Under the pieces are notes generated by a model that had not been told where the DNA came from, did not search any database, and saw only the letters and a list, made by a program, of their open reading frames with translations. Of a stretch of DNA of 64,000 bases, positions 3,224 to 64,000 are shown one piece after another. The DNA is from an uncultured Syntrophaceae bacterium (lineage in GTDB: Bacteria > Desulfobacterota > Syntrophia > Syntrophales > UBA2192). Position numbers and translations under genes: made by a program. Location of the stretch: NCBI GenBank assembly GCA_964619035.1, contig CAZUBX010000001.1, positions 13,089 through 77,088 of the forward strand, given 5' to 3'. Every line of letters starts with the position of its first letter. The stretch's first letter is position 1.

Positions 3224-3241
3224 AGGGCGGGGATGCTTTGT

Positions 3242-8592: not shown

Positions 8593-8601
8593 GGAAGGAG
8601 A

Positions 8602-9081: not shown

Positions 9082-9168
9082 CGGGCCTGACCCGGGAAGC
9101 CTGCCCGAATGGCCGACCTGCGCGGTCCATTTTTTAAAAACACAACGTCATGATCCCGGGAGGACCAG

Positions 9169-9453
9169 ATGAGCGAGAAAGACGATTTTGCGAAAGGGAT
9201 ACTCACAGGAGCCCTGATCGGGGGGCTGATCGGCGTCGTGGTCGGGATCCTGGTTGCGCCGAAAAGCGGTTCGGAGACAAGACAGGAGCTTGCCGGGAAG
9301 GCCAGGAATTTTTCCGACAAGGTCCAGGATGAGTATGATTCGTTTTATGACAAGGCGAGGCGCACCCAGGACAACCTGATCCATCGTCTCCAGGAGATCG
9401 AGGAGACCGCGCGCAAGAAAGCCGACGAACTGGCCGCCAAATTAAAATCCTAG
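9169..9453 (+). CDS. YtxH-domain protein (copy 2)
   Basis: MSEKDDFAKGILTGALIGGLIGVVVGILVAPKSGSETRQEL. Paralogous to the 8308-8592 gene. Confidence 0.8.
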   Translation: MSEKDDFAKGILTGALIGGLIGVVVGILVAPKSGSETRQELAGKARNFSDKVQDEYDSFYDKARRTQDNLIHRLQEIEETARKKADELAAKLKS

Positions 9454-12161: not shown

Positions 12162-12848
12162 ATGGGCATGACCGGGAAATTGCAGAGGAAGGAAAAGGAA
12201 TTTCTGTTTCGCCGCGCCGAGATTCTCGAGCAGGCGGTGAAGATCTTTTCCGCGAAGGGGTTCCATGAGACAACGATGGCGCAGATCGCGGAAGCCTCCG
12301 GCTTTTCGATCGGGAGTCTTTATCATTTCTTCCGCGGAAAAGAGGAGCTCTACTCCGTCATGGTGACGGAGAAGGTCCGTATGATGTACGACGAAATCAT
12401 GGGAGCCGTGAGCCGGGAGCCGGCCTTCCTGGGCAGGATCAATGCCCTCGTGATATCCCACTTCGCTTACGTGGAGCACCATATCGACTTCTACCGTCTG
12501 TTGGTCGGTCATGAAAGCGGCCTGAGATCGGAGGGTCTGAAGAAGCTGCGGGACAGCATTCTTGACGAGCACCGCAAGCATGTCGGATGGATCGAAGATC
12601 TCCTTCGCGAAGGAATCCGGCAACAGGTCCTCAGGGCTCTCGACACGAAGTCCCTGGCCAATGCCCTCGTGGGGATCATCGCCTACTCCAAGTTCGCCTG
12701 GATCATGAACCCCTCAGGGGCATCCCTGCTGGGAAAGGTGGACGACGTCCTGGACGTGTTCCTCCGGGGCGCCGCCGCGGGACAAGAAGTCGGGCAGGCG
12801 GTAACATCCGTCCTCGACCGGAAAAACAGGACTCAGGAGGCAGGATGA
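12162..12848 (+). CDS. TetR/AcrR-family transcriptional repressor
   Basis: N-terminal HTH FHETTMAQIAEASGFSIGSLYHFFRGKEELY. Its stop overlaps the next gene's start (ATGA). Confidence 0.85.
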   Translation: MGMTGKLQRKEKEFLFRRAEILEQAVKIFSAKGFHETTMAQIAEASGFSIGSLYHFFRGKEELYSVMVTEKVRMMYDEIMGAVSREPAFLGRINALVISHFAYVEHHIDFYRLLVGHESGLRSEGLKKLRDSILDEHRKHVGWIEDLLREGIRQQVLRALDTKSLANALVGIIAYSKFAWIMNPSGASLLGKVDDVLDVFLRGAAAGQEVGQAVTSVLDRKNRTQEAG

Positions 12849-14167
12849 AAATCTGCATGAAGTGGGTGGTCCCCCTTGGATTGCTGATCGTTATCGGATT
12901 CGGACCCGCTCAAGCCGGGGAATACACCCTGGAGGAGCTTTACATGATCGGGATGCAGAAATCCGAGAAGGTGAAGATCTCCGGCGAAAACGTGGAGATC
13001 GCCGACTCCGGGAAGTACAAGGCCCTGTCGGCGCTTCTGCCGAAAGCAACCGCATTCGGGGCCGGTACGCAATTCTCGGGGGAAAGAACGACTGCCACGG
13101 GAACCATCATCCAGCCACACACGCAAGGGAACTGGGGGGTTCGCGTCGACGAGACCCTGTCGTTGAGCGGGCGTGAATTCATGTCTTATTCCCAGTCCAA
13201 GGATAACGTGGAGAAAAGCAGGTTTGATAACCGGACGTTTCGGGAGGATTTTCTTCTCACCCTGTCCCTGGCCTACTTCGAATTCCTGAAGGCCAGGAAG
13301 GGCCTCGAGATCGCCGACTCCAACGTGGAGCGACTGACGAAATACCGGGAGGCCGCCAAGACCCGCTTGAAGGCGGGCGAGATCACGAAGACCACGGTCC
13401 TGCGGGCGGAAGGCGAACTCTCCGGGGCCCTCTCGGATCAGATCAAGGCAAGAAATTTCTACGAAAGCTCGCGGGTGAACCTGGCACGACTCGTGGGGAT
13501 CGAACGGGACTTCCAGATCCGGGAGATTCCCGTCACGGAGCGGGAAACGGTCTCACTCGATGTCTTGAAGGAAAAAGCGCTCAAGAACCGTCCCGATGTG
13601 AAGAGCATCGAGACACAGGTCCAGATTGCCGAAAAACAGGTTGACGTCACCAAGGGGGCGTACTGGCCCAGCGTTTCGCTCTCGGGGGTCTACGCCGGAA
13701 CGGACCAGAATCCGGCCACGCCGACGATCAACCGGGAGAGTACCTATGGTGTCCTCACCCTCAATTTCCCGTTATTCGAAGGCGGACTGAGGCGGGCGGA
13801 GGTGCAAGAATCGCAGTCGAAGTACCGCCAGGCCGAGTTCCAGTACCGGGACTTTGTGAAGTCCGTGAACGTGGAGGTGGAGAACACCTACCTCGATCTC
13901 ATCGCCCAGAAGGGCATCTACAAATCCGCCCAGGACCAGATGGCCTATGCCGAGGACAACATCCGGGCGGTGGCGAAACAGTTCGAGTTCGGGCTGGCCA
14001 GCAGTCTCGATGTCATCGACGCCAACAACCTGCTCATCTCGGCCCAGAAGCTTATGGCCGATGCCACCTATAACTACCAGTTCTTCATCCTCCGCCTGCA
14101 GCGTGTGACGGGTTTTCCCCTGATGGAATTTGTCGCCGGCAGGACGGGCGAAGAGAGAAAACCCTAG
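12845..14167 (+). CDS. TolC-family outer-membrane efflux protein
   Basis: Signal peptide MKICMKWVVPLGLLIVIGFGPAQA. Two OEP-type coiled-coil repeats (RAEGELSGALSDQIKARN... and QESQSKYRQAEFQYRD...). GGAGG SD precedes the start. Confidence 0.85.
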   Translation: MKICMKWVVPLGLLIVIGFGPAQAGEYTLEELYMIGMQKSEKVKISGENVEIADSGKYKALSALLPKATAFGAGTQFSGERTTATGTIIQPHTQGNWGVRVDETLSLSGREFMSYSQSKDNVEKSRFDNRTFREDFLLTLSLAYFEFLKARKGLEIADSNVERLTKYREAAKTRLKAGEITKTTVLRAEGELSGALSDQIKARNFYESSRVNLARLVGIERDFQIREIPVTERETVSLDVLKEKALKNRPDVKSIETQVQIAEKQVDVTKGAYWPSVSLSGVYAGTDQNPATPTINRESTYGVLTLNFPLFEGGLRRAEVQESQSKYRQAEFQYRDFVKSVNVEVENTYLDLIAQKGIYKSAQDQMAYAEDNIRAVAKQFEFGLASSLDVIDANNLLISAQKLMADATYNYQFFILRLQRVTGFPLMEFVAGRTGEERKP

Positions 14168-14190
14168 GGAAACCGGAGGAACCAAATCTG

Positions 14191-15300
14191 ATGCTCAACC
14201 GAGACGCGAACTCATTGACTGCGACCAGGCGATTCCGGGCAGCGGCGGCGACACTCTTTCTTCTCCCGTTCCTGCTCCTCGGTGCATGCGGGAAGAAGGA
14301 TGCCAAGGTGGCGGAGGAGAAAACGGTCAACATTCAGGTCAAGACCGTGGAGACAAAATCCCTGAGGCCCTTTATCGAAACCATCGGTTCGATGAAGGCC
14401 TTCGAGCAGGTGGTCGCATCGAGCGAGATCGAGGGAATTCTGCGCACGACGAACGTCGAAGAGGGCGCTTTCGTGTCCAAGGGGGCGCTGCTGGCCACGG
14501 TGGAGGACAGGGACTATGCCAGTGAACTGAGGCGTGTCGAATACGCCCTCAAACAGGCCGAAGCGACCCTTGTCAATACGAAGGCGGAGTTCGGCCGCAA
14601 AGAAACCCTGTATAAGGAAGAACTCGTCACCAAGCAGCAGTTCGACGATGTGGCCATGAGGATGGCTGTCGCCGATGCCGAGCTTGAGCGTTCCAGGGCC
14701 GCCCTGGCCATTGCCCGGGAACGTTTTGCCAAGACACGCATCCTCGCCCCCATGGCGGGATACATCAGCGAAAAGAAGATCTCCCAGGGGGAATACGTCC
14801 GCAACGGAACCCCGCTGTACACCCTCGTGCAGATCGATCCTCTCAAGCTGCTATTCACCGTATCGGAGAAGGACATCGGCCGGCTCAAGATCAACCAGGA
14901 CGTTCAGTTCAAGGTAGATGCCTATCCCGACCGGGAGTTCAAGGGGCGGGTCACGATCCTCTACCCGACGATCGACGAGAGGACCCGGAGCCTCATGGTC
15001 GAGGCGAGGGCCTCAAACCCGGAGCGCCTTCTGAAACCGGGGCTTTTCGCCAAGGTCATGCTCTACACGACCGAAGCGAGGGATACGGTCGTCATCCCCG
15101 TGACGTCCATGCTCTACGAGGGAAAAAACGTCAAGGTCTTTGTCGTGGAAGGAGACCGGGCCAAGGAACGGCTGGTGAAGGTGGGGAACAAGTACGACGA
15201 CCTGATGGAGGTCGTCGATGGCCTCAAGGGCGGTGAGACCCTCGTCGTCGTGGGCCAGCAGAACCTCGCGGAAGGGGTGAAGGTCAATGTGGCTCGCTGA
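14191..15300 (+). CDS. RND efflux periplasmic adaptor (MFP/HlyD family), lipoprotein
   Basis: Lipobox LLGAC. Lipoyl/hairpin/beta-barrel pattern (EIEGILRTTNVEEGAFVSKGALLATVE...ILAPMAGYISEKKISQGEYV). Confidence 0.85.
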   Translation: MLNRDANSLTATRRFRAAAATLFLLPFLLLGACGKKDAKVAEEKTVNIQVKTVETKSLRPFIETIGSMKAFEQVVASSEIEGILRTTNVEEGAFVSKGALLATVEDRDYASELRRVEYALKQAEATLVNTKAEFGRKETLYKEELVTKQQFDDVAMRMAVADAELERSRAALAIARERFAKTRILAPMAGYISEKKISQGEYVRNGTPLYTLVQIDPLKLLFTVSEKDIGRLKINQDVQFKVDAYPDREFKGRVTILYPTIDERTRSLMVEARASNPERLLKPGLFAKVMLYTTEARDTVVIPVTSMLYEGKNVKVFVVEGDRAKERLVKVGNKYDDLMEVVDGLKGGETLVVVGQQNLAEGVKVNVAR

Positions 15301-18300
15301 CACCTCCATCAAACGGCCCGTCACGGCGACGATGTTCCTCATGGCCCTCGTCGTCCTGGGCATCGTGAGCTACCCCAGTATCGGCGTCGATCTCTACCCC
15401 AAAGTCGATTTCCCCATTGTCAACGTCACGACGCGTCTGATCGGGGCAAGTCCCGAGATCATGGACATCGACGTGACGGACAAGATCGAGGAGTCGATCA
15501 ACACGATCAACGGCGTCAAGACGATCAGCTCCCAGAGCGTCGAGGGGGTGTCCGTCGTCACCGTGGAATTCGAGCTCGAGAAAAACATCGATCTCGCCGT
15601 GCAGGATGTGCGGGAGAAAATCTCCATCATCCGCTCGAAGCTCCCGACCGACATCGAAGAGCCCATCATTCAGAAGGTGGACCCCGATGCCACCCCAGTC
15701 CTGTGGCTGAGCCTCTCGGGCAGCCGCTCGATCGGTGAGCTGTCCACCTATGCCGATGAGGTCCTCCAGGAGAAACTGCAGAAGGTGACGGGGGTGGGGG
15801 CCGTCAACGTCACGGGGCTCAGGCTCCGGCAGGTGCGCATCTGGCTGAGCCGGGACAAGCTCCAGGCCTATCAGATCACGTCCAGCGACGTTGCACAGGC
15901 CCTGGCACGGGAGAACGTAGAGAAACCCGGGGGGAGGATCGAGAGCCTCTCCAAGGAGTACTCCATCAAGGTCAAGGGAGAATTCCCCCGGGTTTCCGAT
16001 TTCAACGATCTCATCGTGGCCTATTCCAAGGGAGCCCCCGTACGCATCAGAGACATCGGCCGCGCGGAAGACGGCCTCGAGGAGAGGCGATCCATTGCAC
16101 GCCTCAACGGGGAGACAGCCGTCGGCCTCGGCATCCAGAAGCAGTCGGGAACCAACACCGTCGAGGTCGTTGACCTGGTGAAAAAAGAGCTGGCGAAGGT
16201 CCAGAAGACCCTGCCGCCGGGGATGAATCTCAGCATCTCTTTCGACCAGTCCCGGTTCATCAAGACCTCCATCAACGAGGTGCAACACCACCTGATCATC
16301 GGCGGTTTGCTCGCCGTTTTCGCCGTCTTCCTTTTTCTGAAAAACGTCAGGACGACGCTCATCAGCGCCCTGGCCCTTCCGATTTCCGTTATTGCCACTT
16401 TTACCCTCATCCAGGCATTCGGTTTCACCTTCAACAACATGACGATGCTGGGCCTGACCCTGTCCATCGGGCTGCTCATCGATGATGCCATCATCGTCAT
16501 CGAGAACATCTACCGGAATATCGAGCTGGGGATGAAACCCCGGGAAGCGGCATCCTTTGCCACGGCCGAGATCGGGCTCGCCGTCATGGCGACCACGATG
16601 GCCATCGTGGCCATTTTTCTCCCCGTGGCGTTCATGAAGGGGATCATCGGGCGATTCTTCCTGCAGTTTGCCCTCACCGTGGTCTTTGCCGTTCTCGTGT
16701 CGCTCATCATTTCCTTCACCCTGACACCCATGATGTCTTCCCGTTTTCTGAAGCCCCACGGGCAGGAGACTCCCGGTCCTCGATGGAAGCCTCTGCGCAT
16801 GGTTTATCAACGGATACAGAGGATGGGTGACTGGCTGGAGAGGCGCTATGGCGAGATGGAGCGGGTCTATCGCCGATTCCTCGAGTTGTGCCTGGACAGG
16901 AGAAAGACCGTTCTTGTGCTTGCCCTTGTCATTTTTATCTTGAGTCTCATGATGACTCGGTTCATCGGCAAGGAATTCGTGCCGGCAGAGGACCAGAGCC
17001 AGTTCATCGTGCGGCTCGAGGCGCCCATCGATTATTCCGTCGATGCCACGGACGGGCTCTTTCAGAAGGCCGAGGCCATCGTCAAGGGGATCCCCGAGAT
17101 CACGAGATTGTACTATTCCCAGGGAGGAGGCCGATTCCGGGAGGTCAACAAAGCCGTTTTCATGGTCACCCTGACGCCGAAGAAGGAACGGAAAAGAAGC
17201 CAGCAGGATATCCAGGCAGTGATCCGTAAAGACCTGTCCCGGATCCCGGGCCTCAAGGCAAGCGCCGAAAACATATCCCTGATCGGGGGCGGGCAGCGAA
17301 ACGTGCCCATCCAGTACTCGATCCGGGGAACGGATCTGGATGCCCTCCAGAAGTATGCAAAACAGATCACCACAGAATTCGCCCGCCTCCCCGGAATTGT
17401 CGACGTGGACACCTCCCTGGAATCGGGCAAGCCGGAGGTCAAGGTCTACATCGACAGGGACAAGGCCGCCGACCTGGGGGTCAACATCGCTACGATCGCC
17501 GAGGCGGTCAACTTCCTGATCGGCGGAGAGGTCGACGTGACCAAGTACAAGGACGAGGCGCGGGGGAGACGCTATGACGTGAGGGCCAGACTCGATCCGG
17601 GCGACAGGTCGAGCCCCTCCGATATCGGGCGTATCTACGTGCGCTCAAAGGACGGACGTCTCGTGGAGCTGTCGAATGTCGTGCAGATTCAAGAGGGAGG
17701 CGGCCCCAGCATTATCAACCGGGTTGACCGGCAGCGGGCTGTGACCGTCTTTGCCAACCTGGAGAAGAAGCCGATGGGACAAGCCATGGCGGAGCTCGAC
17801 AGGATCACGGCCGGCGTGCTACCCTCCGATTTCACGGCGAGCTACAAGGGCCAGGCCAACGTGATGCAGGAGTCCTTTCAGTACCTGCTGTTTGCAATCC
17901 TGCTCGGCGTCATCATGGCCTATATGGTCCTGGCGGCACAGTTCGAGAGCTTCATCCATCCGTTCACGGTTCTGCTCTCCCTTCCCCTGTCGTTCATCGG
18001 GGCATTTGGCGCGCTCCTGATCACGGGAAAGACCCTCAACGTATTCAGCTATATCGGCCTCATCCTCCTGATGGGGCTCGTGAAAAAGAACGCTATTCTT
18101 CTCGTGGATTACACCAATACCCTGAGGGCCCGTGGGGTTGACCGAAGAAGCGCCATCCTGGAGGCGGGCCCCGTGCGGCTCAGGCCCATCCTCATGACGA
18201 CCGTTGCCATGATTTTCGGCATGCTTCCCGTCGCCTTCGGCGTCGGAGAGGGCGCCGAGACCCGCTCGCCCATGGGCGTATCCGTCATCGGCGGTCTTCT

Positions 18301-18604
18301 GACGTCGCTGTTCCTGACCCTTGCCGTGGTCCCTGCAGCCTACGATCTCTTCGACGACGGACAGGACTGGCTGAGGCGGGGCGAATTCAGAAAGCTTGTC
18401 ACCCCGGCTTACTGGAAGATGAGAATCAGGCAGGTTCCGGCTCTTCTGGGGAAAATCCGTCAGGCCCCGGGAGCCTTGATGTCCCTGTGGTCGAAAACGA
18501 AACAGGCGCCTCACGCCGCAACGACTCTGTGGCGGAAGATCTCGAGCCTGATCAAGAGAAAGCGAAGCGGGAGCCCGCCGGATGCAGGGGAGGGCGCCAC
18601 ATGA
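15287..18604 (+). CDS. RND inner-membrane efflux pump (AcrB/AcrD/AcrF family) with about 80-aa C-terminal extension
   Basis: 1105 aa. Typical AcrB N-terminus MWLADTSIKRPVTATMFLMALVVLGIVSY. 12-TM architecture with GLLIDDAIIVIENI and GLVKKNAILLVD motifs. Overlaps the adaptor gene by 14 nt. Confidence 0.9.
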   Translation: MWLADTSIKRPVTATMFLMALVVLGIVSYPSIGVDLYPKVDFPIVNVTTRLIGASPEIMDIDVTDKIEESINTINGVKTISSQSVEGVSVVTVEFELEKNIDLAVQDVREKISIIRSKLPTDIEEPIIQKVDPDATPVLWLSLSGSRSIGELSTYADEVLQEKLQKVTGVGAVNVTGLRLRQVRIWLSRDKLQAYQITSSDVAQALARENVEKPGGRIESLSKEYSIKVKGEFPRVSDFNDLIVAYSKGAPVRIRDIGRAEDGLEERRSIARLNGETAVGLGIQKQSGTNTVEVVDLVKKELAKVQKTLPPGMNLSISFDQSRFIKTSINEVQHHLIIGGLLAVFAVFLFLKNVRTTLISALALPISVIATFTLIQAFGFTFNNMTMLGLTLSIGLLIDDAIIVIENIYRNIELGMKPREAASFATAEIGLAVMATTMAIVAIFLPVAFMKGIIGRFFLQFALTVVFAVLVSLIISFTLTPMMSSRFLKPHGQETPGPRWKPLRMVYQRIQRMGDWLERRYGEMERVYRRFLELCLDRRKTVLVLALVIFILSLMMTRFIGKEFVPAEDQSQFIVRLEAPIDYSVDATDGLFQKAEAIVKGIPEITRLYYSQGGGRFREVNKAVFMVTLTPKKERKRSQQDIQAVIRKDLSRIPGLKASAENISLIGGGQRNVPIQYSIRGTDLDALQKYAKQITTEFARLPGIVDVDTSLESGKPEVKVYIDRDKAADLGVNIATIAEAVNFLIGGEVDVTKYKDEARGRRYDVRARLDPGDRSSPSDIGRIYVRSKDGRLVELSNVVQIQEGGGPSIINRVDRQRAVTVFANLEKKPMGQAMAELDRITAGVLPSDFTASYKGQANVMQESFQYLLFAILLGVIMAYMVLAAQFESFIHPFTVLLSLPLSFIGAFGALLITGKTLNVFSYIGLILLMGLVKKNAILLVDYTNTLRARGVDRRSAILEAGPVRLRPILMTTVAMIFGMLPVAFGVGEGAETRSPMGVSVIGGLLTSLFLTLAVVPAAYDLFDDGQDWLRRGEFRKLVTPAYWKMRIRQVPALLGKIRQAPGALMSLWSKTKQAPHAATTLWRKISSLIKRKRSGSPPDAGEGAT

Positions 18605-18620
18605 TCTGAAGGAGGGGGCC

Positions 18621-18911
18621 ATGAAGATGTTTCTGATCGTCTACTGTGATGCCGCCGATGAGGATGTGATCGAGGCCTTCAAGAAGAGCGGCGTCCGGGC
18701 CTACACGAAGATGAGCCAGGCCAGGGGAGAGGGGACGGACACGGTACCGAAACTCGGCACTCACTGCTGGCCGGGGAAGAACAACGCCCTGTTCATCGCC
18801 GCCAGCGACGACGAGGTGAGCCGCATCAAGGAGGCCATCCGCGAGATCCGGCGCGCGCACCCCCGCTCAGGTGTCAAGGGCTTCATCCTCCCCATGGAGG
18901 AGAGCGTTTGA
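18621..18911 (+). CDS. Small PII-like (ferredoxin-fold) protein downstream of RND pump
   Basis: GAAGGAGGG SD before the ATG at 18621. 96 aa with a beta-alpha-beta pattern (MKMFLIVYCDAADEDVIEAFKKSGVRAYTKM...ALFIAASDDEVSRIKEAIREIR...GFILPMEE). The family call is inference. Confidence 0.5.
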   Translation: MKMFLIVYCDAADEDVIEAFKKSGVRAYTKMSQARGEGTDTVPKLGTHCWPGKNNALFIAASDDEVSRIKEAIREIRRAHPRSGVKGFILPMEESV

Positions 18912-21486: not shown

Positions 21487-21767
21487 GTCTGCTCCCTGCA
21501 ATGACTCCGTTTTTGAATGATCAAAATATATCATACTTTTCAATCGCGATGGGCAAAAGTTGGGCAGGGCGCCCCTCGTCCTGTCCAATCCGGTGAAGCG
21601 AACCCGGCCGGATCATCTACGAATATTTTGGTATAGGTTCTCATGAATCCTTCTTAGGCGAAGTCGCGAAAAAATCATCTCTTCGTCGTATTGTCATTTT
21701 CGCAGTTGCGGGGTAAGGTTTATCCCAAGAGAGTACCATCGAATCGGTTTGACGAAGGAGGGGAAAC

Positions 21768-22052
21768 GTGAAACCGGACAAGACCATCGACGATTTGATA
21801 CGGGAGAAGAATCTGTCACCGGAAGAGCTCAAACGGCATCGGGAGCTGATCGAGGAGTGCCGGATCCGGGAAGCCCAGATCAGGGAATACTCACGGGCAG
21901 CCCACGAAAGCATGAAACGCATGACGGTGGAACTGGACAAGCTGAACCGGACGGCGGAGGAACTGTGGCAGGAGGCCCAGACGCTCTCGCAGCGGGTCAG
22001 CGGGATCTGTCTGCGCCTGGCTCCGGCGCCGACGCGGAAGGTCTACCACTAG
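21768..22052 (+). CDS. Hypothetical coiled-coil protein
   Basis: GTG start follows a GAAGGAGGGG SD. Charged heptad-like sequence. Preferred over the antisense ORF 21641-21940, which is Ser/Arg-rich and has no SD. Confidence 0.45.
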   Translation: MKPDKTIDDLIREKNLSPEELKRHRELIEECRIREAQIREYSRAAHESMKRMTVELDKLNRTAEELWQEAQTLSQRVSGICLRLAPAPTRKVYH

Positions 22053-22098
22053 CCGCTTCGCGGCCGGCTTCGGGCATCCGGATTCCGGAATCTTGCAG

Positions 22099-22764
22099 CT
22101 ATTCGAGACAATCCGTGATATCCGACGCCCGCTCCAGAATCAGGTCGGCCCCGGCGGCCTTCAAGTCGGCGATGCCGGAGTAACCCGTCAGCACCCCGAT
22201 GGACAGTGCGCCGACCTCTTTCCCCACGAGAATGTCCATGGGGTGATCGCCGACCATGGCGGAGTGCGCAGGCTCCTCGTTCAGGATCCACAGCACGGCA
22301 CGGATGTGATCGGGGTGGGGCTTCACCCGCTCCGCCTCGTCCCGGGTCACGATGGCATCGCTGTAGTCCCGGATGTCGGGAAAGATCGCCGTAACCGCAT
22401 CGAGGCAATTGCGGGTGAGGATTCCCGTCTTGATCCCGCGACGCCTCAATTCCACGAGCATCTCCTTCACACCCGGAAACAGGTGGCTGTTGACGGCACC
22501 CGCCAGCTCCCGGTCGCTCACCAGCCTCAAGGCGCGACCGGAGAAGGCCCCCTCTTGCCCGGGAATTCTTCGGCCGATCCGGTCCCGAATCTCTGCGATC
22601 ATCTCGAGTACAAACAGCCGCTCCATGCCGTCTTCCGAGATCCCGTAGGTTGCCGCAAGATCGAGGATATCCTTGCGCATCTCCTTGAAATCGATGTTCA
22701 GGAGGGCCAGCGTGCCGTCAAAGTCGAAGACAACGGCGTTGAGGTTCAGAGAGAGGTTATTCAT
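22099..22764 (-). CDS. HAD-superfamily phosphatase (phosphoglycolate phosphatase-like)
   Basis: Motif I VVFDFDGTLA, motif II ILTRN, motif IV MVGDHPMD. Confidence 0.8.
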   Translation of the reverse strand: MNNLSLNLNAVVFDFDGTLALLNIDFKEMRKDILDLAATYGISEDGMERLFVLEMIAEIRDRIGRRIPGQEGAFSGRALRLVSDRELAGAVNSHLFPGVKEMLVELRRRGIKTGILTRNCLDAVTAIFPDIRDYSDAIVTRDEAERVKPHPDHIRAVLWILNEEPAHSAMVGDHPMDILVGKEVGALSIGVLTGYSGIADLKAAGADLILERASDITDCLE

Positions 22765-22779
22765 GACGGCTGCCTTGCC

Positions 22780-23736
22780 TCACGGGGAGGACGGTCCATG
22801 ATTGCCCGTCGCGTAGTCGGGACGAAGGGATTTGCGGACCACGCGGTTCGAGTTCTTTTCGGGCAGGGTGAACCCGAAGACGATCTCCAGGAAGTTCATG
22901 ACGATGGACATCGTGGCCCCCCAGAGGACCTCCTCATGACCTCCGGGCGGCGTGTAGAGAAAACAGGGGAAGTTGCGCACCGGCTCCACCTCGTGGCGGA
23001 AAGGGAGTGTCGACTCGATCTCTACGGTCAGAGTACCGTACCGGTTCCGGTCGAAAAGGGCCTTCAGCGGGATTTCGATGACCCGCTCCACCTCACGGTT
23101 GGGCTGAAACGTCCAGTCCCGCTTGACAAGTCCCACGACGGGAAAGATGATGCGTGAAAAGACGTAGAGCTCCCGTGAGGGAAGGGCTCCCAGGAATTGG
23201 ACGTTGAGCGGGTTGACCCGGATCTCTTCCCAGGCTTCCCTCAGGGCATTCGTCAGAAACAGGGAGATGTGCTCCAGGGTCTTTACACCTTTCGCTCTTG
23301 CCATCGATCGGGCTTTGCCTTGCATAATCGGTGTGAGCCCCGTCGAGATCAGGTGTCTCAGCAGGCGATCCGCCACGGGGTGGAGCATGCCGCCGGGGCA
23401 GCTGATATCCCCGGGCTGGGGGACCACGGAGGAGCGCTTGATGAGTTGCAGGACGAACCCGCCCTCCTTTCCGGTTCCCTCGTGATAGTGCAGCAGGAGG
23501 ATCACGCCTGCCGCGAGCCAGCGTTCGGCACTTCCGTTCTTACTTCGGATGAACTCGACCCGTTCCTCGTAGTCGATGGAAACGCTGCCCAGGTGCTCGA
23601 TGATTTGTTCGATGACCCCCTTGGGGGCCGAAAGATCGGGTAACTGCATTCCATGCTCCAATCGTTTGACCATTATACCCATTTCGGACGCGGCATCAAG
23701 GTGTTCATCGGCCGGAAGTCTAAAACGGTCAGACAA
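22780..23736 (-). CDS. NUDIX hydrolase, CoA-pyrophosphatase-like
   Basis: LIKRSSVVPQPGDISCPGG resembles the NudL/Nudt7 upstream motif. Nudix-box remnant ALREAWEEIRV. The start is uncertain, with several in-frame Met codons. Confidence 0.65.
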   Translation of the reverse strand: MSDRFRLPADEHLDAASEMGIMVKRLEHGMQLPDLSAPKGVIEQIIEHLGSVSIDYEERVEFIRSKNGSAERWLAAGVILLLHYHEGTGKEGGFVLQLIKRSSVVPQPGDISCPGGMLHPVADRLLRHLISTGLTPIMQGKARSMARAKGVKTLEHISLFLTNALREAWEEIRVNPLNVQFLGALPSRELYVFSRIIFPVVGLVKRDWTFQPNREVERVIEIPLKALFDRNRYGTLTVEIESTLPFRHEVEPVRNFPCFLYTPPGGHEEVLWGATMSIVMNFLEIVFGFTLPEKNSNRVVRKSLRPDYATGNHGPSSP

Positions 23737-27061: not shown

Positions 27062-27138
27062 GGCGGCGTAGCTCAGTCGGTTAGAGCATGCGGCTCATAT
27101 CCGCAGTGTCCGGGGTTCAAGTCCCTGCGCCGCCACCA
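27062..27138 (+). tRNA. tRNA with CAU anticodon (elongator Met, or Ile2 if lysidinylated)
   Basis: Cloverleaf: acceptor GGCGGCG/CGCCGCC, D-arm TAGCTCAGTCGGTTAGAGC, anticodon stem GCGG/CCGC with loop CTCATAT, T-arm CCGGGGTTCAAGTCCCTG (as written), encoded CCA. Confidence 0.9.
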
Positions 27139-34521: not shown

Positions 34522-34872
34522 ATGCAGCGCATCATGCTCAAATCCAAGATCCACCGCGCGACGGTGACGGATGCCAACCTGAACTACGAGGGAAGCATCA
34601 CCATCGACGAGGGCCTCATGAAATCGGCCGATCTCGTTCCCTTTGAAAAGGTTGCGATCTACAACGTGTCAAACGGCGAGCGCTTTTCGACGTACGCGAT
34701 CAAGGGCAAAAAGGGCTCCGGCGTCATCTGTCTCAACGGCGCGGCGGCCCGGAAAGTCTCGAAGGGCGATCTCATCATCATTGCGAGCTACGTCATGGTG
34801 GGCGATGCCGAGTCGAAAAAGTGGGCCCCGAAGTGCGTCCACGTGGACGGAAAGAACAAAAAGAAAAAATAG
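34522..34872 (+). CDS. panD: Aspartate 1-decarboxylase (pyruvoyl)
   Basis: [25 protein letters not shown] contains the G-S self-cleavage site. Confidence 0.9.
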
Positions 34873-42133: not shown

Positions 42134-42237
42134 TCTTCCTTTGCACCGTTCGTACACCTGCCGGGCAAAGACAATAAATATGGACAGCGGGTCCGGAATA
42201 TGTTAGCAAGTTCTCTTTGATTTTGGGGAAAACGTCT

Positions 42238-43092
42238 ATGAATTTCGGCGGGATCGATCCAGAATACGAAGCACTCGAAAAGGCGGCCTTTGTGGTCGTT
42301 CCTGTTCCCTATGATCTGACGACAACTTACCAGGGCGGGGCCCGCAAGGGGCCTTCGGCCATCCTCGAGGCCTCCTGCAATATGGAGCTCTACGACGAGG
42401 AACTCGAGGCGGAGATTTACAAAGCGGGAATCCATACCTTGGCGCCCCTGGAGGCAGTCGCAGCAGGGCCGGAAGGTATGCTTGCGCGAGTAGAGGAAGC
42501 CGTGGCGGACGTTCTCGAGACGGGAAAAATTCCCGTCATGCTGGGCGGCGAGCACAGCATCACGCTCGGGGCCGTAAGGGCAGCAAAGAAGCGTTATCCG
42601 AAGCTCTCGGTGCTCCATCTGGACGCGCATGCCGACATGCGGGCCGCCTATCAGGGGACCCCTTACAGCCATGCCTGTATCGGCAGAAGGATGAAGGAGC
42701 TCTGCCCGGTCGTGCAGGTCGGTATCCGGAGCATGAGCGTCGAGGAAGCCGCCTTTATCCGGAAGGAACGCATCCCCGTTTTCACGGCGGCGGCCATACG
42801 GAAGGACCGCTCATGGGTCGGCAAGGTCCTTCGCCACCTCTCGAGGGATGTCTACATCAGTGTAGACCTGGACGCCTTCGACCCCTCGGTGATGCCGGCA
42901 ACAGGCACTCCCGAGCCAGGGGGAATGCTGTGGCATGACGTTCTCGATGTGATCCGGGAGGTCTGTCGAAAGCGACGCATCGTCGGGTTCGACCTGGTCG
43001 AACTGGCGCCCATCCCCGGCATGGTGGCCCCGGACTTCCTGGCGGCCAGGCTTGCTTACCGAATGATGGGCTATTTGTCGAAAAAATCCTGA
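42238..43092 (+). CDS. speB: Agmatinase
   Basis: Ureohydrolase motifs GGEHSIT, HLDAHADM and SVDLDAFDPS. Confidence 0.85.
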   Translation: MNFGGIDPEYEALEKAAFVVVPVPYDLTTTYQGGARKGPSAILEASCNMELYDEELEAEIYKAGIHTLAPLEAVAAGPEGMLARVEEAVADVLETGKIPVMLGGEHSITLGAVRAAKKRYPKLSVLHLDAHADMRAAYQGTPYSHACIGRRMKELCPVVQVGIRSMSVEEAAFIRKERIPVFTAAAIRKDRSWVGKVLRHLSRDVYISVDLDAFDPSVMPATGTPEPGGMLWHDVLDVIREVCRKRRIVGFDLVELAPIPGMVAPDFLAARLAYRMMGYLSKKS

Positions 43093-43107
43093 TAAAGGAG
43101 AGGATAC

Positions 43108-43659
43108 GTGAATATCTGGGTACCCAAAAAGATCTTTTTCACCAAGGGCGTAGGGAACCACAAGGAAGAGCTGCACTCTTTCGAACTGGCCCTCCGGAAC
43201 GCGGGGATCGAGAAATTCAACCTGGTTTACGTATCGAGCATTTTCCCCCCGGGCTGCAGGATGATCTCCAAGGCGAAGGGGCTGCAGGAAAAACACCCCG
43301 GCGAGATCACCTACTGCGTCATGAGCCGCTGCTCCAGCAACGAGCCCTATCGTATGCTGGCCGCTTCCGTCGGTTGTGCCATCCCGGCCGATACGTCACA
43401 GTACGGATACATCAGCGAGCATCACGCCTACGGACAGCCTGAAAAACCGGCCGGTGACTACGCGGAGGACCTGGCCGCCGCCATGCTGGCCTCGACGCTG
43501 GGCATCGATTTCGACGTCGACAAAAGCTGGGATGAGAACAAGGAGATCTTCAAGATCAGCGGCAAGATCGTTCGGACGCGAAACGTGACCCAGTCCGCCA
43601 TCGTCCCGAGAAAGGGCGGGTGGACGACCGTCGTTGCCGCCGCGGTATTTGTCTTCTAG
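43108..43659 (+). CDS. pdaD: Pyruvoyl-dependent arginine decarboxylase
   Basis: [43 protein letters not shown] is the PdaD signature and includes the SS cleavage site. GTG start. Confidence 0.85.
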
Positions 43660-43745: not shown

Positions 43746-43822
<77 letters not shown>

Positions 43823-49922: not shown

Positions 49923-49951
49923 TTGATTTTTCCCCGGGGGCCTTCTATAAT
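49923..49951 (+). promoter_or_regulatory. Sigma70-type promoter for yihY-cNMP gene
   Basis: TTGATT (49923-49928), 17 nt, TATAAT (49946-49951). Confidence 0.5.
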
Positions 49952-50001: not shown

Positions 50002-51270
50002 GTGACCCTTCTTTCGACGAGTCCTTTCCAGAGACATCGGGACCGGTGGATCACCCCCATCGTGGTGGTGCGATTCTCCGTCCTGTCCTTCCTTCGAAAC
50101 CGGGATCTTCACACAGCCGCCACGCTGGCCTTCTATGGCGTGTTCGCCCTGATTCCCCTGTGCCTGGCCGTCATGTTTCTTCTCAGCCAGTTCTTCGTTT
50201 CCTCTCAGCGGGTGAGCCGGGCAATCGAGCACCTGATCATCCAGATCGTTCCGCAGTACTACGAGATCATTCTCCGCGAGGTCTTCATCCTGGCGGAAAC
50301 GATAACCTTCGGCTTTATCGGCTTTATTCTGCTGCTCTGGTCCATCGTCCCCCTGGTCAGCACGATCCGGACCGGTTTCATCAACGTCTTCAAGACGGAA
50401 CGCACGGCAGGATTTGTCCGGGAAAAACTCATCGACTTCGGTTCCGTCCTGCTCTTTCTGCTGCTGTTCATCGGGCTCGTGGGGGCCGAGATTCTCTACG
50501 CCACGGCCCTGGGCGACTACCTCGACCAGAAGAGCGGCCTCCCGATCCTGCTGAACGCGGCGGTGCCCCCGCTTGCAGCGGCTCTGTTCCTCGCGATTTT
50601 TTTCCTGGTCTTTTCCCCGGTCCGTCTCGAGGGATGGAATATCCTCGTGAGCGCGATTTTCACCGCCGGACTCTGGTCGGTCGTGCGCCCGCTTTTCGTG
50701 GCGTTTTTGCAGTACAATCCCGACTACGGTCTCACGTTCGGCTCTCTCAAGGCGATCTTCGTCCTGATCGTCTGGGTCTACTATACCTTTGCCGTGATCC
50801 TGTTCGGAACGGAGCTCCTGGCCAATATCCGCCGCAGGGAGGCCCTTTTGCTGTCGCGGTTTTTCGAGGACAGAAAATCCGATGAGGCCCCGTTTCCCGT
50901 GGTTCCTTCCCGCTTCATCCGATCGCACGAACCCGGTGAAGTCATTTTCGAGGAAGACAGCACGGGCCGGGAAATGTTTTACATCCTGTCAGGCTCTGTC
51001 CGCATCCTCAAGAAGGGTCACCTGCTCAGGGAGATGGTTCCCGGAGACTATTTCGGGGAGATGGCCATGCTGATCCAGGCCCCAAGAACGGCGGCGGCCG
51101 TGGCAGCCGCCCCGGACACCCGGCTCGTGGCCATTTCGGAGTCCAATCTCGAAACCATCCTGAGGGAGAATCCAAAGATCGTGGTCTCTTTTCTCAAGGA
51201 GATGTCCGGCCGACTCCGGTCGGTCAATGAAAAGGTTGACGATTGTTCAGAAAGGAAGGAAATCCCATGA
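50002..51270 (+). CDS. YihY/BrkB-family membrane protein fused to cyclic-nucleotide-binding domain
   Basis: YihY pattern AATLAFYGVFALIPL plus six TM helices. C-terminal cNMP-binding fold (EMFYILSGSVRILKKG...GDYFGEMAMLIQAPRTAAAVA). GTG start. Confidence 0.8.
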   Translation: MTLLSTSPFQRHRDRWITPIVVVRFSVLSFLRNRDLHTAATLAFYGVFALIPLCLAVMFLLSQFFVSSQRVSRAIEHLIIQIVPQYYEIILREVFILAETITFGFIGFILLLWSIVPLVSTIRTGFINVFKTERTAGFVREKLIDFGSVLLFLLLFIGLVGAEILYATALGDYLDQKSGLPILLNAAVPPLAAALFLAIFFLVFSPVRLEGWNILVSAIFTAGLWSVVRPLFVAFLQYNPDYGLTFGSLKAIFVLIVWVYYTFAVILFGTELLANIRRREALLLSRFFEDRKSDEAPFPVVPSRFIRSHEPGEVIFEEDSTGREMFYILSGSVRILKKGHLLREMVPGDYFGEMAMLIQAPRTAAAVAAAPDTRLVAISESNLETILRENPKIVVSFLKEMSGRLRSVNEKVDDCSERKEIP

Positions 51271-51599
51271 AAATCGCCATTTCCTCGACGGGGCCCGAGC
51301 TGAGCGACCTCGTGGACCCCCGTTTTGGCCGCTGTCGTTATTACATCTTCTACGACGTCAGCACGGGCTTGCACGCGTCAAAAGAAAATACAGCCGGCAT
51401 GCATTGAATCACCCGCGGAACGGCTACCGGGAATCTCGTGGCCGGTGAAAACGTGGATTGTGTCATCACGGGGCACATCGGGCGGAAAGCGACGGCCTTA
51501 CTCAACGGGGCAGGGGTGAGGATCTTCCTTGGCGCCTCGGGACCGGTGAAGTCCGCCCTCGAGTCCTTCAAGAACGGCAAATTGGAAGAGAAGCTTTGA
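51267..51599 (+). CDS. NifX/NifB-type (Nitro_FeMo-Co fold) small protein interrupted by one in-frame TGA: candidate selenoprotein or pseudogene
   Basis: The ATG at 51267 overlaps the upstream stop (ATGA). Translation: MKIAISSTGPELSDLVDPRFGRCRYYIFYD...AGMH-TGA(51405-51407)-ITRGTATGNLVAGENVDCVITGHIGRKATALLNGAGVRIFLGASGPVKSALESFKNGKLEEKL. Family-typical sequence continues in the same frame on both sides of the TGA. Confidence 0.5.
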
Positions 51600-51610
51600 T
51601 CCCTCTCAAA

Positions 51611-51668
51611 AGAAAAGCCCCATCCATCTGCCGAAACGGCAGTCCCTGGGATGGGGCTCTTGTATTTC
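51611..51668. terminator. Two-tier hairpin between convergent genes
   Basis: Outer stem GCCCCATCC (51617-51625) pairs with GGATGGGGC (51649-57). It encloses CTGCCG-aaa-CGGCAG. Flanked by an A-rich tract on the 5' side and a T-rich tract on the 3' side. Confidence 0.6.
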
Positions 51669-51692
51669 CTGATGCCTGCGGCCTATAGGCCG

Positions 51693-52508
51693 CTAGAAGG
51701 AGTGTTCCGGTCCGGGGAACGTCCCCTTTTTGACCTCGTCGATATACTGCGTGACGGCGTCCTTGATTTGCACATTCAGGTTCGTATACTTCTTGACGAA
51801 CTTCGGCGTAAAGCGCTCGAAGAGCCCCAGCATGTCGTGAACCACGAGGACCTGGCCGTCACAGTGCAACCCGCCGCCGATCCCGATCGTGGACATGGAG
51901 AGAGAAGCCGTGATCTTCTCCGCGAGCTGAGCGGGGACACACTCCAGCACGATGGAGAACGCGCCGGCATCCTCGAGGATCTTGGCATCCTCCAGGAGCT
52001 TCGTGGCCGAGGGATGATCCTTGCCCTGGACCTTGTAACCGCCGAGCTGATGCACGGACTGCGGCGTGAGTCCGATGTGGCCCATGACGGGAATGCCCGC
52101 CTGGGCGATCCTCCGGGTGGCTTCGGCGACCTCGCGGCCGCCTTCGAGCTTCACCCCGTGAGCGCCGGCTTCCTGCATGAAGCGCCCTGCATTGCGGACG
52201 GCCTCCTCTGCGGAAACCTGATAGGACATGAACGGCATGTCGCCGATCACCATGGCCCGGTTCACGGCCCGCGTGACGGCCTTCGTGTGATGGATCATGT
52301 CCTCCATCGTCACGGGCAGGGTGCTGTCGTAGCCCAAAACCACCATCCCCAGCGAATCCCCCACGAGGATGACATCGATCCCGGCCTCGTCCATGACGGC
52401 CGCCGTCGGGTAGTCATAGGCCGTCAGCATGGAGATCTTCTCTCCCTTCTTTTTCATGTCCCGAACCGTCGCCGTGGTGACCCGCGTGATCTTCACCTGT
52501 GTGCTCAT
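51693..52508 (-). CDS. panB: 3-methyl-2-oxobutanoate hydroxymethyltransferase
   Basis: [13 protein letters not shown]...[14 protein letters not shown]...KLEGG are PanB motifs. Confidence 0.9.
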
Positions 52509-62143: not shown

Positions 62144-64000
62144 ATGCCAAAACGGACAGACATCAAGAAGGTGATGATCATCGGATCAGGCCCGATCGTC
62201 ATCGGACAGGCCTGCGAGTTCGACTATTCCGGCACTCAGGCCTGCAAGGCCTTGAGAAAGCTCGGTTACGAAATCGTTCTCGTCAACTCGAACCCGGCCA
62301 CGATCATGACGGATCCGGGAATGGCCGATGTAACCTACATCGAGCCTCTGAATGTCCAGAGCATGATCGAGATCATCGAAAACGAGCGTCCCGACGCCAT
62401 CCTGCCCAACCTCGGCGGCCAGACGGGCCTCAATCTGACCTCGGAGCTTCACAAGAAGGGCATCCTCGAAAAATACGGAGTGAAGGTCATCGGCGTGCAG
62501 GTCGACGCCATTGAACGCGGCGAGGACCGTATGGCGTTCAAGGAGACCATGAACCGCCTCGGCATCGAGATGCCGGAAAGCGAAATCGCATACCGTATCG
62601 AAGAGGCCGAGGCCGTGGCGGCAAAACTGGGCTATCCCGTCGTGATCCGTCCAGCCTATACCATGGGAGGCACGGGCGGAGGGCTTGTCTACAACCCCGA
62701 GGAGCTTCGGGTCGTGGCGGCCAGGGGTCTGGCGGCGAGCCTGGTAGGCCAGATCCTCGTGGAGGAGTCCGTACTCGGCTGGGAGGAGCTGGAGCTTGAG
62801 GTTGTTCGAGATGCCAAGAACCAGATGATCACCGTCTGCTTCATCGAGAACGTGGACGCCATGGGGGTCCACACGGGCGACTCGTACTGCACAGCGCCCA
62901 TGCTCACCATTTCCCCGGAGCTCCAGAAGAGGCTCCAGAAATACTCCTATGATATCGTCGAGGCAATCCAGGTCATCGGCGGGACCAACGTCCAGTTCGC
63001 CCACGACCCGAAGACGGGCCGCGTCGTCGTCATCGAGATCAATCCCCGCACATCACGCTCGTCGGCCCTGGCCTCCAAGGCGACGGGATTTCCCATCGCC
63101 CTCATCTCGGCCATCCTGGCGGGGGGGCTCACCCTGGACGAGATCCCGTACTGGCGGGAAGGGACCCTCGAAAAGTACACCCCCTCGGGTGACTACGTGG
63201 TCGTGAAGTTCGCCCGGTGGGACTTCGAGAAATTTCCAGGCGCCGAGGACAAACTGGGCACCCAGATGCGCGCCGTGGGCGAGGTGATGAGCATCGGCAA
63301 GAACTATAAGGAGGCCCTTCAGAAGTCGATCCGTTCATTGGAAAAGGGCCGGTACGGCCTCGGGTTTGCCCGGGATTACCACCAGAAAAGCCTGGAAGAG
63401 TTGATGGATCTCCTCGTTGAGCCCTCCAGCGAGCGCCAGTTCATCCTGTATGAGGCCCTGAGAAAAGGAGCCGCCGTGGATGCGCTCTTCCGCAAGACCT
63501 ACATCAAACACTGGTTCATCGAACAGATGAAGGAACTTGTCGAACTTGAGGAAAAGATTCTGAAAACCAAGGGCAAGGAGATCCCCGATTCGCTTCTCGC
63601 CCAAGCCAAGAAAGACGGCTTTGCCGACCGCTATCTCTCTCAGATCCTGAGCATTCCCGAGGAGAAAATCCGAAAGCGCCGCACCGAACTGGGTATTGTC
63701 GAGTGCTGGGACGCCGTACCCGTCTCCGGAGTCGAGAACGCGGCTTATTATTACTCCACGTACAACGCCCCCGACAAGGTCACGACGACGGGCAACCGCA
63801 AGGTGATGGTGCTTGGCGGAGGCCCGAACCGGATCGGGCAGGGGATCGAGTTCGATTACTGCTGCGTCCACGCCGCCTTCACGCTGCGTGACGAAGGCTT
63901 CGAATCCGTCATGGTGAACTGCAACCCCGAAACGGTCTCCACGGACTATGACACGTCGGACAAGCTCTACTTCGAGCCTCTGACTGTGGAGGACGTGCTC
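62144..64000 (+). CDS. carB: Carbamoyl-phosphate synthase large subunit (3' end outside window)
   Basis: MPKRTDIKKVMIIGSGPIVIGQACEFDYSGTQACKALRKLGYEIVLVNSNPATIMTD... The frame is open to the window end. It is not in the ORF track because it has no stop. Confidence 0.95.
   Translation, partial: MPKRTDIKKVMIIGSGPIVIGQACEFDYSGTQACKALRKLGYEIVLVNSNPATIMTDPGMADVTYIEPLNVQSMIEIIENERPDAILPNLGGQTGLNLTSELHKKGILEKYGVKVIGVQVDAIERGEDRMAFKETMNRLGIEMPESEIAYRIEEAEAVAAKLGYPVVIRPAYTMGGTGGGLVYNPEELRVVAARGLAASLVGQILVEESVLGWEELELEVVRDAKNQMITVCFIENVDAMGVHTGDSYCTAPMLTISPELQKRLQKYSYDIVEAIQVIGGTNVQFAHDPKTGRVVVIEINPRTSRSSALASKATGFPIALISAILAGGLTLDEIPYWREGTLEKYTPSGDYVVVKFARWDFEKFPGAEDKLGTQMRAVGEVMSIGKNYKEALQKSIRSLEKGRYGLGFARDYHQKSLEELMDLLVEPSSERQFILYEALRKGAAVDALFRKTYIKHWFIEQMKELVELEEKILKTKGKEIPDSLLAQAKKDGFADRYLSQILSIPEEKIRKRRTELGIVECWDAVPVSGVENAAYYYSTYNAPDKVTTTGNRKVMVLGGGPNRIGQGIEFDYCCVHAAFTLRDEGFESVMVNCNPETVSTDYDTSDKLYFEPLTVEDVL

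Follow-up and report, generated by a model that had tools for sequence, protein, structure and literature searches.

A candidate selenoprotein of the NifX/orange-protein type, with an in-frame UGA and a SECIS-like hairpin, in Syntrophales bacteria

Does the TGA triplet found inside a small NifX/NifB-like gene of an uncultured Syntrophaceae bacterium end the protein, or is it read as selenocysteine (Sec)? The gene is located at positions 51267-51599 of the window, i.e. the whole stretch of 64,000 nucleotides analysed here (contig CAZUBX010000001.1, positions 13,089 to 77,088). New bacterial selenoprotein families appear regularly, and selenocysteine, a rare and costly residue, is almost always found at a chemically active site. 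An earlier inspection of the letters without database searches (hereafter the sequence-only reading) had proposed a candidate selenoprotein, on the basis of family-typical sequence on both sides of the TGA and of a hairpin resembling a bacterial selenocysteine insertion sequence (SECIS) just downstream; it named a recent nonsense mutation and a sequencing error as alternatives. The comparison with related loci presented below makes it very probable that codon 47 is a genuine Sec-encoding UGA. The gene and its signals are the following (ORP, orange protein).

51267-51599, plus strand: candidate selenoprotein gene of 110 codons, encoding a single-domain NifX/ORP-like (Nitro_FeMo-Co) protein, defined from the translation, Pfam and the orthologs.
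51253-51259, plus strand: Shine-Dalgarno-like motif AGGAAGG, 7 nt 5' of the ATG, read from the sequence and of presumed role.
51267-51269, plus strand: start codon ATG of the candidate selenoprotein gene.
51405-51407, plus strand: in-frame UGA, codon 47, probably read as Sec according to the ortholog codons and the Cys relatives.
51597-51599, plus strand: terminal stop codon TGA of the same gene.

The read-through translation is MKIAISS...NTAGMH*ITRGTATGNLVAGENVDCVITGHIG...KLEEKL* (each asterisk stands for a TGA). This product covers positions 3-93 of the 94 of the profile PF02579 (Nitro_FeMo-Co) with an E value of 2.3e-18 and a score of 66.7 bits, for a gathering cutoff of 26.3. The 46 residues of the N-terminal half correspond to the profile positions 3-31 and the 63 residues of the C-terminal half to the positions 43-93. 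As both halves are found in one frame along PF02579, the TGA is a point feature, and a frameshift was rejected because the profile is continuous across the TGA. The sequence-only reading was thus correct in all the coordinates of the in-frame TGA and in its argument that family sequence flanking the TGA in a single frame speaks against a frameshift. Among the Pfam-supported genes of the window, TGA is the commonest stop: 24 of 40 genes end with it, among them the upstream gene and the candidate selenoprotein gene itself. TGA is therefore not a sense codon in this organism, and the genetic codes 4 and 25 were rejected for the same reason.

A sequencing or assembly error, the true codon being TGG, TGC or TGT, has practically no probability. 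The separate runs SRR13723393 and SRR13723397 each gave a Logan assembly that agrees letter for letter with the window (over 4.4 kb and 3.0 kb) and carries the TGA, which rules out an error specific to one assembly; moreover, the column reads TGA in more than 100 further assemblies.

The related loci were gathered by scanning one genome per species (GTDB) and the JGI metagenomes with an alignment of the subfamily, and the gene was extracted from each locus. The codons were counted in the 115 loci that contain the subfamily motif, with protein identities of 55-95%. At the column to which the sequence-only reading had drawn attention, TGA is present in 113 loci, TGC in one and TGT in one, and neither TAA nor TAG was ever observed. 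All the named source genomes with at least 57% identity are Syntrophales, Syntrophaceae, Syntrophus or "delta proteobacterium" metagenome-assembled genomes (MAGs). The matches below about 42% identity are ordinary members of the family, distributed in many phyla, with a Gly-rich loop (GGxGAG) at the Sec column. The search at the protein level recovered full-length relatives of 110-118 residues with 56-74% identity, while many closer relatives have been called as fragments: the N-terminal pieces end with ...NTAGMH, the C-terminal pieces of 63 residues start with M/V-TRGTATGN, and the break is the TGA column. In the alignment, the full-length database relatives P0001 and P0003-P0009 have a Cys exactly at this column. 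The Cys codons detected there are TGC in the locus L032 and TGT in the loci L145, L167, L168 and L170.

Three proteins (P0002, P0010 and P0103) display a Trp at the Sec column; the DNA of P0002 and P0010 has TGA at this position and was called with the genetic code 4. Such calls are a database artefact able to hide or to misreport selenoproteins. The full-length "Trp" calls (P0002, P0010, P0103) are located on short metagenome contigs (L003:140-490 and L004:247-579).

The 88 unique TGA-form genes have a median pairwise ratio of nonsynonymous to synonymous substitutions (dN/dS) of 0.19 over codons 1-40 and of 0.24 over codons 61-107, with dS values of about 1.1-1.2, so both halves of the gene are maintained as protein. 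These results bear on a recent nonsense mutation, which would leave a pseudogene whose translation ends at codon 47. TGA is the commonest ordinary stop and the gene callers, as well as NCBI PGAP, do stop at codon 47; however, 113 of 115 loci, with protein identities as low as 55%, share this TGA and none has TAA or TAG instead, the 63 codons located after it are under purifying selection (median dN/dS of 0.24 at a dS of about 1.1), and orthologs with Cys exist at the same column. A nonsense mutation is consequently extremely improbable. The recurrence of TGA across deep divergence and the two independent, identical assemblies exclude together the two alternatives that had been put forward with the sequence-only reading.

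Another explanation is a split gene in which the ribosome would stop at the UGA and restart after it, giving two chains of 46 and about 63 residues that form one domain, with the hairpin serving termination-reinitiation. The codon following the TGA is indeed a standard start (GTG) in 18 of the 88 unique genes, from which the callers deduce a second open reading frame (ORF) of 63 aa, and the hairpin could in principle pause ribosomes. Yet this codon is not a standard ATG, GTG or TTG start in the 70 other genes (ATC, GTC, ATA, ATT, ACC, ACG, GTT or GTA), among them the window with ATC, which makes a stop-and-restart unlikely. Furthermore, no evident Shine-Dalgarno motif precedes the restart codon, the TGT/TGC orthologs are contiguous single chains, the cut would be located inside the pocket loop of a compact domain of 110 residues, and the hairpin matches the SECIS model by its G-rich loop and its spacing. 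Taken together, we consider the split gene as very improbable, and the reading of codon 47 as Sec is retained below. The elements of the hairpin are:

51421-51444, plus strand: putative SECIS upper stem-loop, with a 7-bp stem (51421-51427/51438-51444) and a 10-nt loop CGGGAAUCUC (51428-51437) of which positions 2-3 are invariant G.
51413-51417 and 51452-51456, plus strand: possible lower stem CCGCG/CGUGG around the upper stem-loop, tentative, formed in the minimum free energy (MFE) folds computed for the window and several close relatives.

The stem CGGCUAC/GUGGCCG begins 13 nt 3' of the TGA and belongs to the window's MFE fold, and the coordinates of the stem, of the loop and of the spacing had been correctly given in the sequence-only reading. 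An alignment of 68 distinct segments of 48 nt beginning at the TGA was used to follow the stem through the orthologs. The 7 bp are paired in 99.8% of the cells, whereas this value falls to 5-58% when the 3' arm is shifted by 1-3 columns. One pair of the stem is changed on both sides, from U-A to C-G in three sequences (and to G-U in one), and wobble changes are observed at three pairs. The same stem and loop were independently recovered by RNAalifold.

Because the stem overlaps the peptide T-A-T-G-N-L-V-A-G, the selection acting on the RNA was assessed apart, at the fourfold-degenerate sites. The entropies at codons 52, 53, 54, 55, 58 and 59 are 0.00, 0.31, 0.11, 0.09, 0.60 and 0.18 bits, respectively; these codons correspond to both arms of the stem and to the 5' part of the loop. 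Just outside the hairpin, the values are 1.5, 1.6 and 1.9 bits (codons 50, 51 and 60), and they are comprised between 1.1 and 1.9 bits over most of the gene, with a few sites at 0.8-1.0. Some codons of the hairpin are fixed or nearly so: Thr52 is ACG in 88 of 88 genes, and GCT is used for Ala53 in 80 of 84 and GTA for Val58 in 77 of 88, while elsewhere in the gene Ala and Val are mostly encoded with C or G at the third position. The third positions of Ala53 (GCU) and Val58 (GUA) pair with each other (columns 21 and 36 of the alignment). The dS of the hairpin segment is half of that of the rest of the gene. By these comparisons, the hairpin is under selection at the RNA level.

The consensus model of the bacterial SECIS (bSECIS) is defined by an upper stem with 4-16 bp, an apical loop that counts 3-9 nt and has at least one G among its first two bases, a distance of 16-37 nt between the UGA and the loop, and an MFE of at most -7.5 kcal/mol (PMC13188914). 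In the 88 unique genes, a G is always present within the first two positions of the loop, and the MFE of the hairpin alone is at or below -7.5 kcal/mol in 86 (mean of -10.8). The first base of the loop is separated from the UGA by 20 nt. The SECIS-like shape and position attributed to the hairpin from the sequence of the window alone therefore agree with the model for the stem, the loop G, the spacing and the energy, the loop as drawn being 1 nt too long.

The pairs of the hairpin kept in the Cys forms are 4 of 7 in L032, 5 of 7 in L145, 6 in L170 and 7 of 7 in L167. Pairs have been lost in L032 and L145 despite a similar peptide; judged on these pairings, the Cys forms behave as expected under a relaxed constraint on the hairpin. 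The Cys form P0001 (L167:385-717, codon TGT) is nested among Sec forms and has a complete hairpin, which is apparently a fossil SECIS remaining after a recent change from Sec to Cys. In a neighbour-joining tree without support values, rooted with the Gly-type members as outgroup, the Sec/Cys subfamily is monophyletic, the Sec forms are found on all the deep branches and the Cys forms at three separate places. This distribution suggests that Sec is ancestral in the Syntrophales subfamily and that about three independent replacements by Cys took place.

Could the UGA be recoded to a standard amino acid? Near-cognate or suppressor decoding might for instance insert Cys or Trp, and a shortage of selenium might lead tRNA(Sec) to carry Cys. 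The natural Cys orthologs indicate that Cys is functionally acceptable at the site. On the other hand, a strongly selected hairpin of SECIS type is present at the canonical distance, TGA genuinely terminates other genes of the window, and the presence of UGA in most members with Cys in a few, where the hairpin is decaying, is the classic Sec/Cys signature. The lineage is also known as a heavy user of Sec: for Syntrophus aciditrophicus, Zhang et al. 2006 (PMC1794560) list 19 selenoproteins, SelD and a HesB-like protein among them. One of the TGA-form loci (L025) comes from a MAG assigned to this species, and the use of Sec by the lineage is thereby suggested indirectly, by analogy with this relative. 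A standard amino acid at codon 47 is in our opinion improbable.

Several results weigh against the recoding of codon 47 as Sec. The case is built on sequence comparison. The fold of the single sequence is not significant (z = -1.59, with 12 of 200 shuffles as stable), so that the hairpin exceeds chance through the comparison of the orthologs and their 99.8% of pairing. The covariation is modest, with one pair altered on both sides, since the stem overlaps a conserved peptide. The loop of 10 nt exceeds by 1 nt the 3-9 nt of the model, although a pairing of G25 with C/U33, which 75 of 88 sequences allow, would shorten it to 7 nt. A permissive Rfam scan of positions 51200-51700 gave a meaningless snoRNA match (E value of 1.1) and no SECIS model. 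The neighbour-joining tree carries no support values. Concerning the machinery, no tRNA-Sec was detected in the 64-kb window nor in about 1.3 Mb of DNA from the related loci, and no SelA, SelB or SelD domain was found among the window ORFs scanned, in accordance with the lack of sel genes in the window already remarked by the sequence-only reading. A tblastn search of the related-locus DNA with approximate E. coli queries for SelD and SelB gave no matches, these scattered flanks being uninformative on the genomes. On balance, the candidate selenoprotein proposed initially is supported by the TGA/Cys column, by the agreement with the SECIS model and by the selection on the RNA.

According to the mechanism that we propose, the UGA at codon 47 would be recoded to selenocysteine during translation. 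The hairpin located 13 nt downstream, with its G+C-rich stem of 7 bp and its loop starting with CGGG, would act as a bacterial SECIS and bring SelB-GTP-Sec-tRNA(Sec) to a ribosome that has paused on the UGA; we infer both the binding of SelB and the incorporation of selenium from the features described above.

What kind of protein would contain this residue? A profile search of the solved structures gave the orange protein of Desulfovibrio gigas (2WFB) as the best match (E value of 3.5e-29), followed by TM1290, MTH1175, PH0822 and TM1816. The folds were compared using an AlphaFold (AF2) model of the natural Cys form P0001, which is 72-74% identical to the window protein (mean predicted local distance difference test, pLDDT, of 87.4). 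With Foldseek, this model superimposes on 2WFB with a template modelling score (TM-score) of 0.94 and a root-mean-square deviation of 1.2 Å; its TM-scores are 0.85 to 1RDU and 0.90 to 1T3V, and it displays the alpha/beta (RNase-H-like) fold of the family. NifX (9IAN_F, TM-score of 0.70) and NafY (1P90, 0.73), with E values of about 2e-3, come behind ORP, TM1290 and TM1816. The Sec/Cys residue is included in a loop between the short helical turn 43-46 and the N-terminus of the first long helix (50-60), where the confidence of the model is lowest (block mean pLDDT of 66).

In the family alignment, the Sec column corresponds to the first Gly of the GGxGAG loop of the ordinary members and to Ser52 of ORP, adjoining His53; the single His of TM1290 is aligned there. 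The residue His53 of ORP was monitored in studies of the assembly of the Mo/Cu cluster in the protein pocket (PMC7701195). The sequence-only reading had placed the TGA where cofactor-liganding His or Cys residues occur in this fold; this holds for ORP and TM1290, which have a His at or beside the column, and does not hold for most members, which have a Gly. The residues invariant in the subfamily include Cys23 (in RFGRC), Arg50, Thr52, Gly55, Asn56 and His70 (in TGHIG). Di-Nase domains with this fold hold clusters of the Fe-S or Mo/Cu-S type, and the motif HFGHC has been proposed as ligand (PMC6345978).

The genes and signals surrounding the candidate selenoprotein gene are listed below (cNMP, cyclic nucleotide monophosphate).

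49923-49951: promoter-like site before the pair formed by the BrkB gene and the selenoprotein gene, from a consensus scan.
50002-51270, plus strand: gene of a YihY/BrkB membrane domain fused to a C-terminal cNMP-binding domain (PF03631 and PF00027), probably co-transcribed with the selenoprotein gene.
51641-51668, plus strand: terminator-like hairpin with a T-rich tail, between the selenoprotein gene and panB, from a consensus match only.
51693-52508, minus strand: panB, convergent (Pfam).

The stop codon TGA of the BrkB/cNMP gene overlaps the ATG of the candidate selenoprotein gene by 4 nt (ATGA, 51267-51270). A tight operon with panB was rejected, this gene being convergent. Pfam identifies BrkB/cNMP, panB, a two-component system, TilS and FtsH as the neighbours in the window. 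In 64 of 96 loci, the BrkB gene directly precedes the selenoprotein gene on the same strand, and panB lies downstream of it in 71 of 85. The fusion of BrkB with a cyclic-nucleotide-binding domain is unusual, and its pairing with the selenoprotein gene is kept in about two thirds of the loci.

The upstream neighbours were tallied for the 75 unique proteins with enough flank. BrkB/cNMP is found in 48 of them, two with an IscU-like gene inserted between the two genes; a divergent FeoB gene is found in 11, an FKBP gene in two and something else in eight. An IscU-like gene (NifU_N) is located 21-120 nt upstream on the same strand in eight unique proteins in all, four of which are confirmed by Pfam. 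As shown by this tally, the partners that recur outside the BrkB clade are iron or Fe-S genes, which gives a hint of a role in the handling of metal clusters. The IscU-like (NifU_N) genes were observed at L034:5511-5981, L027:5517-5996, L028:5597-6004, L123:2457-2987 and L168:5390-5884. One IscU-like locus is 93% identical to the window and contains the IscU-like gene between the BrkB and selenoprotein genes; this gene is absent from the window. The divergent FeoB genes are grouped in one clade (L030:3794-5500 on the minus strand, L031, L033, L035, L037, L153, L155, L158, L161, L162 and L163), where several loci have a small minus-strand ORF beside FeoB.

The product would be a small protein binding or carrying metal-sulfur clusters, of the orange-protein/TM1290/MTH1175 type. 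Toward an iron-sulfur or thiometallate species held by the protein, Sec47 would most likely play the role of a selenolate ligand or of a reactive nucleophile, and Cys23, Arg50 and His70 probably act together with it. The fold, the conservation and the IscU-like and FeoB neighbours of the relatives point to Sec47 as a member of the ligand pocket of such a binding or carrier protein. A more precise proposal, Sec47 being a direct selenolate ligand or a carrier of persulfide/perselenide type for an Fe-S or thiometallate cluster in the NifX/ORP pocket, is plausible, though less likely than not at this stage. The functional assignment is founded on homology and neighbourhood, and it counts against it that the neighbours in the window are BrkB/cNMP and housekeeping genes, not Fe-S genes. 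If the proposal is true, these syntrophic bacteria would have a selenium-dependent metallocluster carrier working with an IscU-like scaffold and the Feo iron uptake. It would also be the first selenoprotein of the NifX/NafY/ORP superfamily, in which Sec would mark the functional site of the NifB/NifX-like proteins of non-diazotrophic anaerobes.

Elsewhere in the window, panD (34522-34872) accompanies panB (51693-52508, minus strand). An operon OEP-HlyD-AcrB is located at 12587-18604; its gene encoding an efflux pump of the AcrB type (resistance-nodulation-division superfamily, 15287-18604) is directly followed, with a slight overlap, by a P-II-like ORF of 109 aa (18582-18911, plus strand; Pfam P-II, E value of 4e-7). 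On the plus strand, positions 42217-43659 contain a gene of the arginase family of agmatinase type and then a gene of pyruvoyl-dependent arginine decarboxylase (polyamine synthesis). Three consecutive ORFs of 144, 354 and 148 aa (21749-23643, plus strand) have no Pfam match at an E value of 1e-5, nor have those at 3233-3958, 8449-9320 and 62186-63871. The only tRNAs of the 64-kb window are two tRNA-Met (CAT), at 27062-27138 and 43746-43822 on the plus strand.

Has this family already been described? The review of May 2026 (Zhang et al., PMC13188914) tabulates 119 families of prokaryotic selenoproteins with their domain identifiers, among which there is no PF02579 and no NifX-like or ORP-like family. 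As to nitrogenase, this catalogue has a single related entry, "Nitrogenase component I subunit alpha", which is a different family (PMC13188914). Full-text searches pairing selenoprotein or selenocysteine with NifX, NifB or iron-molybdenum cofactor returned nothing relevant, and the main texts of deep-Sep (2025) and BSepDB (2026) contain none of the terms "Nif", "molybd" or "FeMo". NCBIfam release 20 has no selenoprotein-specific or equivalog model for the family; the only match is the C-terminal domain of MrpORP (NF041136), with an E value of 7.7e-8, far under the curated cutoff. In a collection of 15 billion proteins, the close relatives are present as fragments only (e.g. HSD95362.1 and HTZ41519.1), with names such as "predicted Fe-Mo cluster-binding NifX family protein" for 46 aa and "NifB/NifX family molybdenum-iron cluster-binding protein" for 63 aa. 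As far as these sources show, the family is undescribed as a selenoprotein. The mechanism, a UGA with a bacterial SECIS, is standard.

The known families of selenoproteins are mostly redox proteins of the thioredoxin-like type. The present family would add to this set a fold of metal-cluster carriers that had not previously been linked to Sec. The small stand-alone NifX/NifB-like proteins (ORP, TM1290, MTH1175) are common in anaerobes that do not fix nitrogen, and several have structures from structural genomics. The presence of Sec in one subfamily points to a working residue and a working loop in these functionally enigmatic proteins. A consequence for annotation is that more than 100 public assemblies give the gene erroneously as two fragments or as a "Trp" protein in code 4. 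The selenoproteome of the syntrophic degraders of fatty acids and aromatics in digesters and sediments, and hence their selenium requirement, would exceed the catalogue.

The comparison with known systems begins with the nitrogenase cofactor proteins. NifX and NafY proper are chaperones of the FeMo-cofactor in diazotrophs, where they are encoded among nif genes (nifEN, nifB, nifHDK), and the His of their HFG motif has a role in them. The identification of the window protein as a true NifX/NafY was rejected in view of the distant fold matches, of the motif RFG in place of HFG and of the lack of nif context. The window contains no nif genes, and none was seen beside the gene in the loci with annotation or in the tally of recurring upstream contexts. 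Since NifX and NafY are distant and no nif genes were seen nearby in the window and the related loci examined, the protein is not a chaperone of the nitrogenase cofactor in the strict sense.

Like the window protein, the orange protein 2WFB consists of one Nitro_FeMo-Co domain, has a length of about 110-120 residues and comes from a deltaproteobacterial lineage of anaerobes, and the motif DPRFGR is common to both. Unlike it, ORP has no Sec or Cys at the site and keeps a Gly-rich HGAGI loop, whereas the window protein has U-I-T-R-G-T and the invariant Cys23. ORP holds its Mo/Cu-sulfide cluster non-covalently (PMC6345978). It is encoded in the orp gene cluster and its identity with the window protein is about 29-31%. 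No neighbours of orp type (Mrp/MinD-type ATPases) were found in the window or in the tallied related loci, and with this identity the status of ORP ortholog was not retained. TM1290 (1RDU), MTH1175 (1EO1), TM1816 and PH0822 share with the window protein the Pfam family, the fold (TM-scores of 0.79-0.90), the size and the N-terminal motif, and are likewise found in organisms and contexts without nitrogenase genes; they differ in that the column holds Gly, Ser or His and in not being selenoproteins.

In MrpORP (NF041136), the motif CxHFGHC corresponds to the RFGRC of the window protein with its invariant Cys23. MrpORP's C-terminal Di-Nase domain binds a [3Fe-4S] cluster, for which CxHFGHC was proposed as the ligand set by the authors (PMC6345978). 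In contrast, MrpORP is a two-domain fusion with an Mrp/NBP35 ATPase, while the window protein is free-standing, is devoid of the CDH motif and has its Sec in a different loop.

As for the RNA, the hairpin resembles the SECIS of the E. coli fdhF type and the bSECISearch model in being a stem-loop of the coding region, just 3' of the UGA, with G residues on the 5' side of the loop. There is no resemblance in sequence between the two hairpins, and the binding of SelB is here only predicted. The spacer of 13 nt of the window hairpin is similar to the spacer of 11 nt of the minimal fdhF element.

Finally, the HesB-like (IscA-type) selenoprotein TIGR01911 is also a small Fe-S carrier, in which Sec replaces a cluster-ligating Cys, and it occurs in organisms of the same kind, Syntrophus aciditrophicus among them (PMC1794560, PMC13188914). 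Its fold and family are unrelated and its motif is UxGP, so that the likeness is one of analogy and not of homology. Within these terms, TIGR01911 is the nearest functional analogy for a metal-cluster carrier that would bear Sec.

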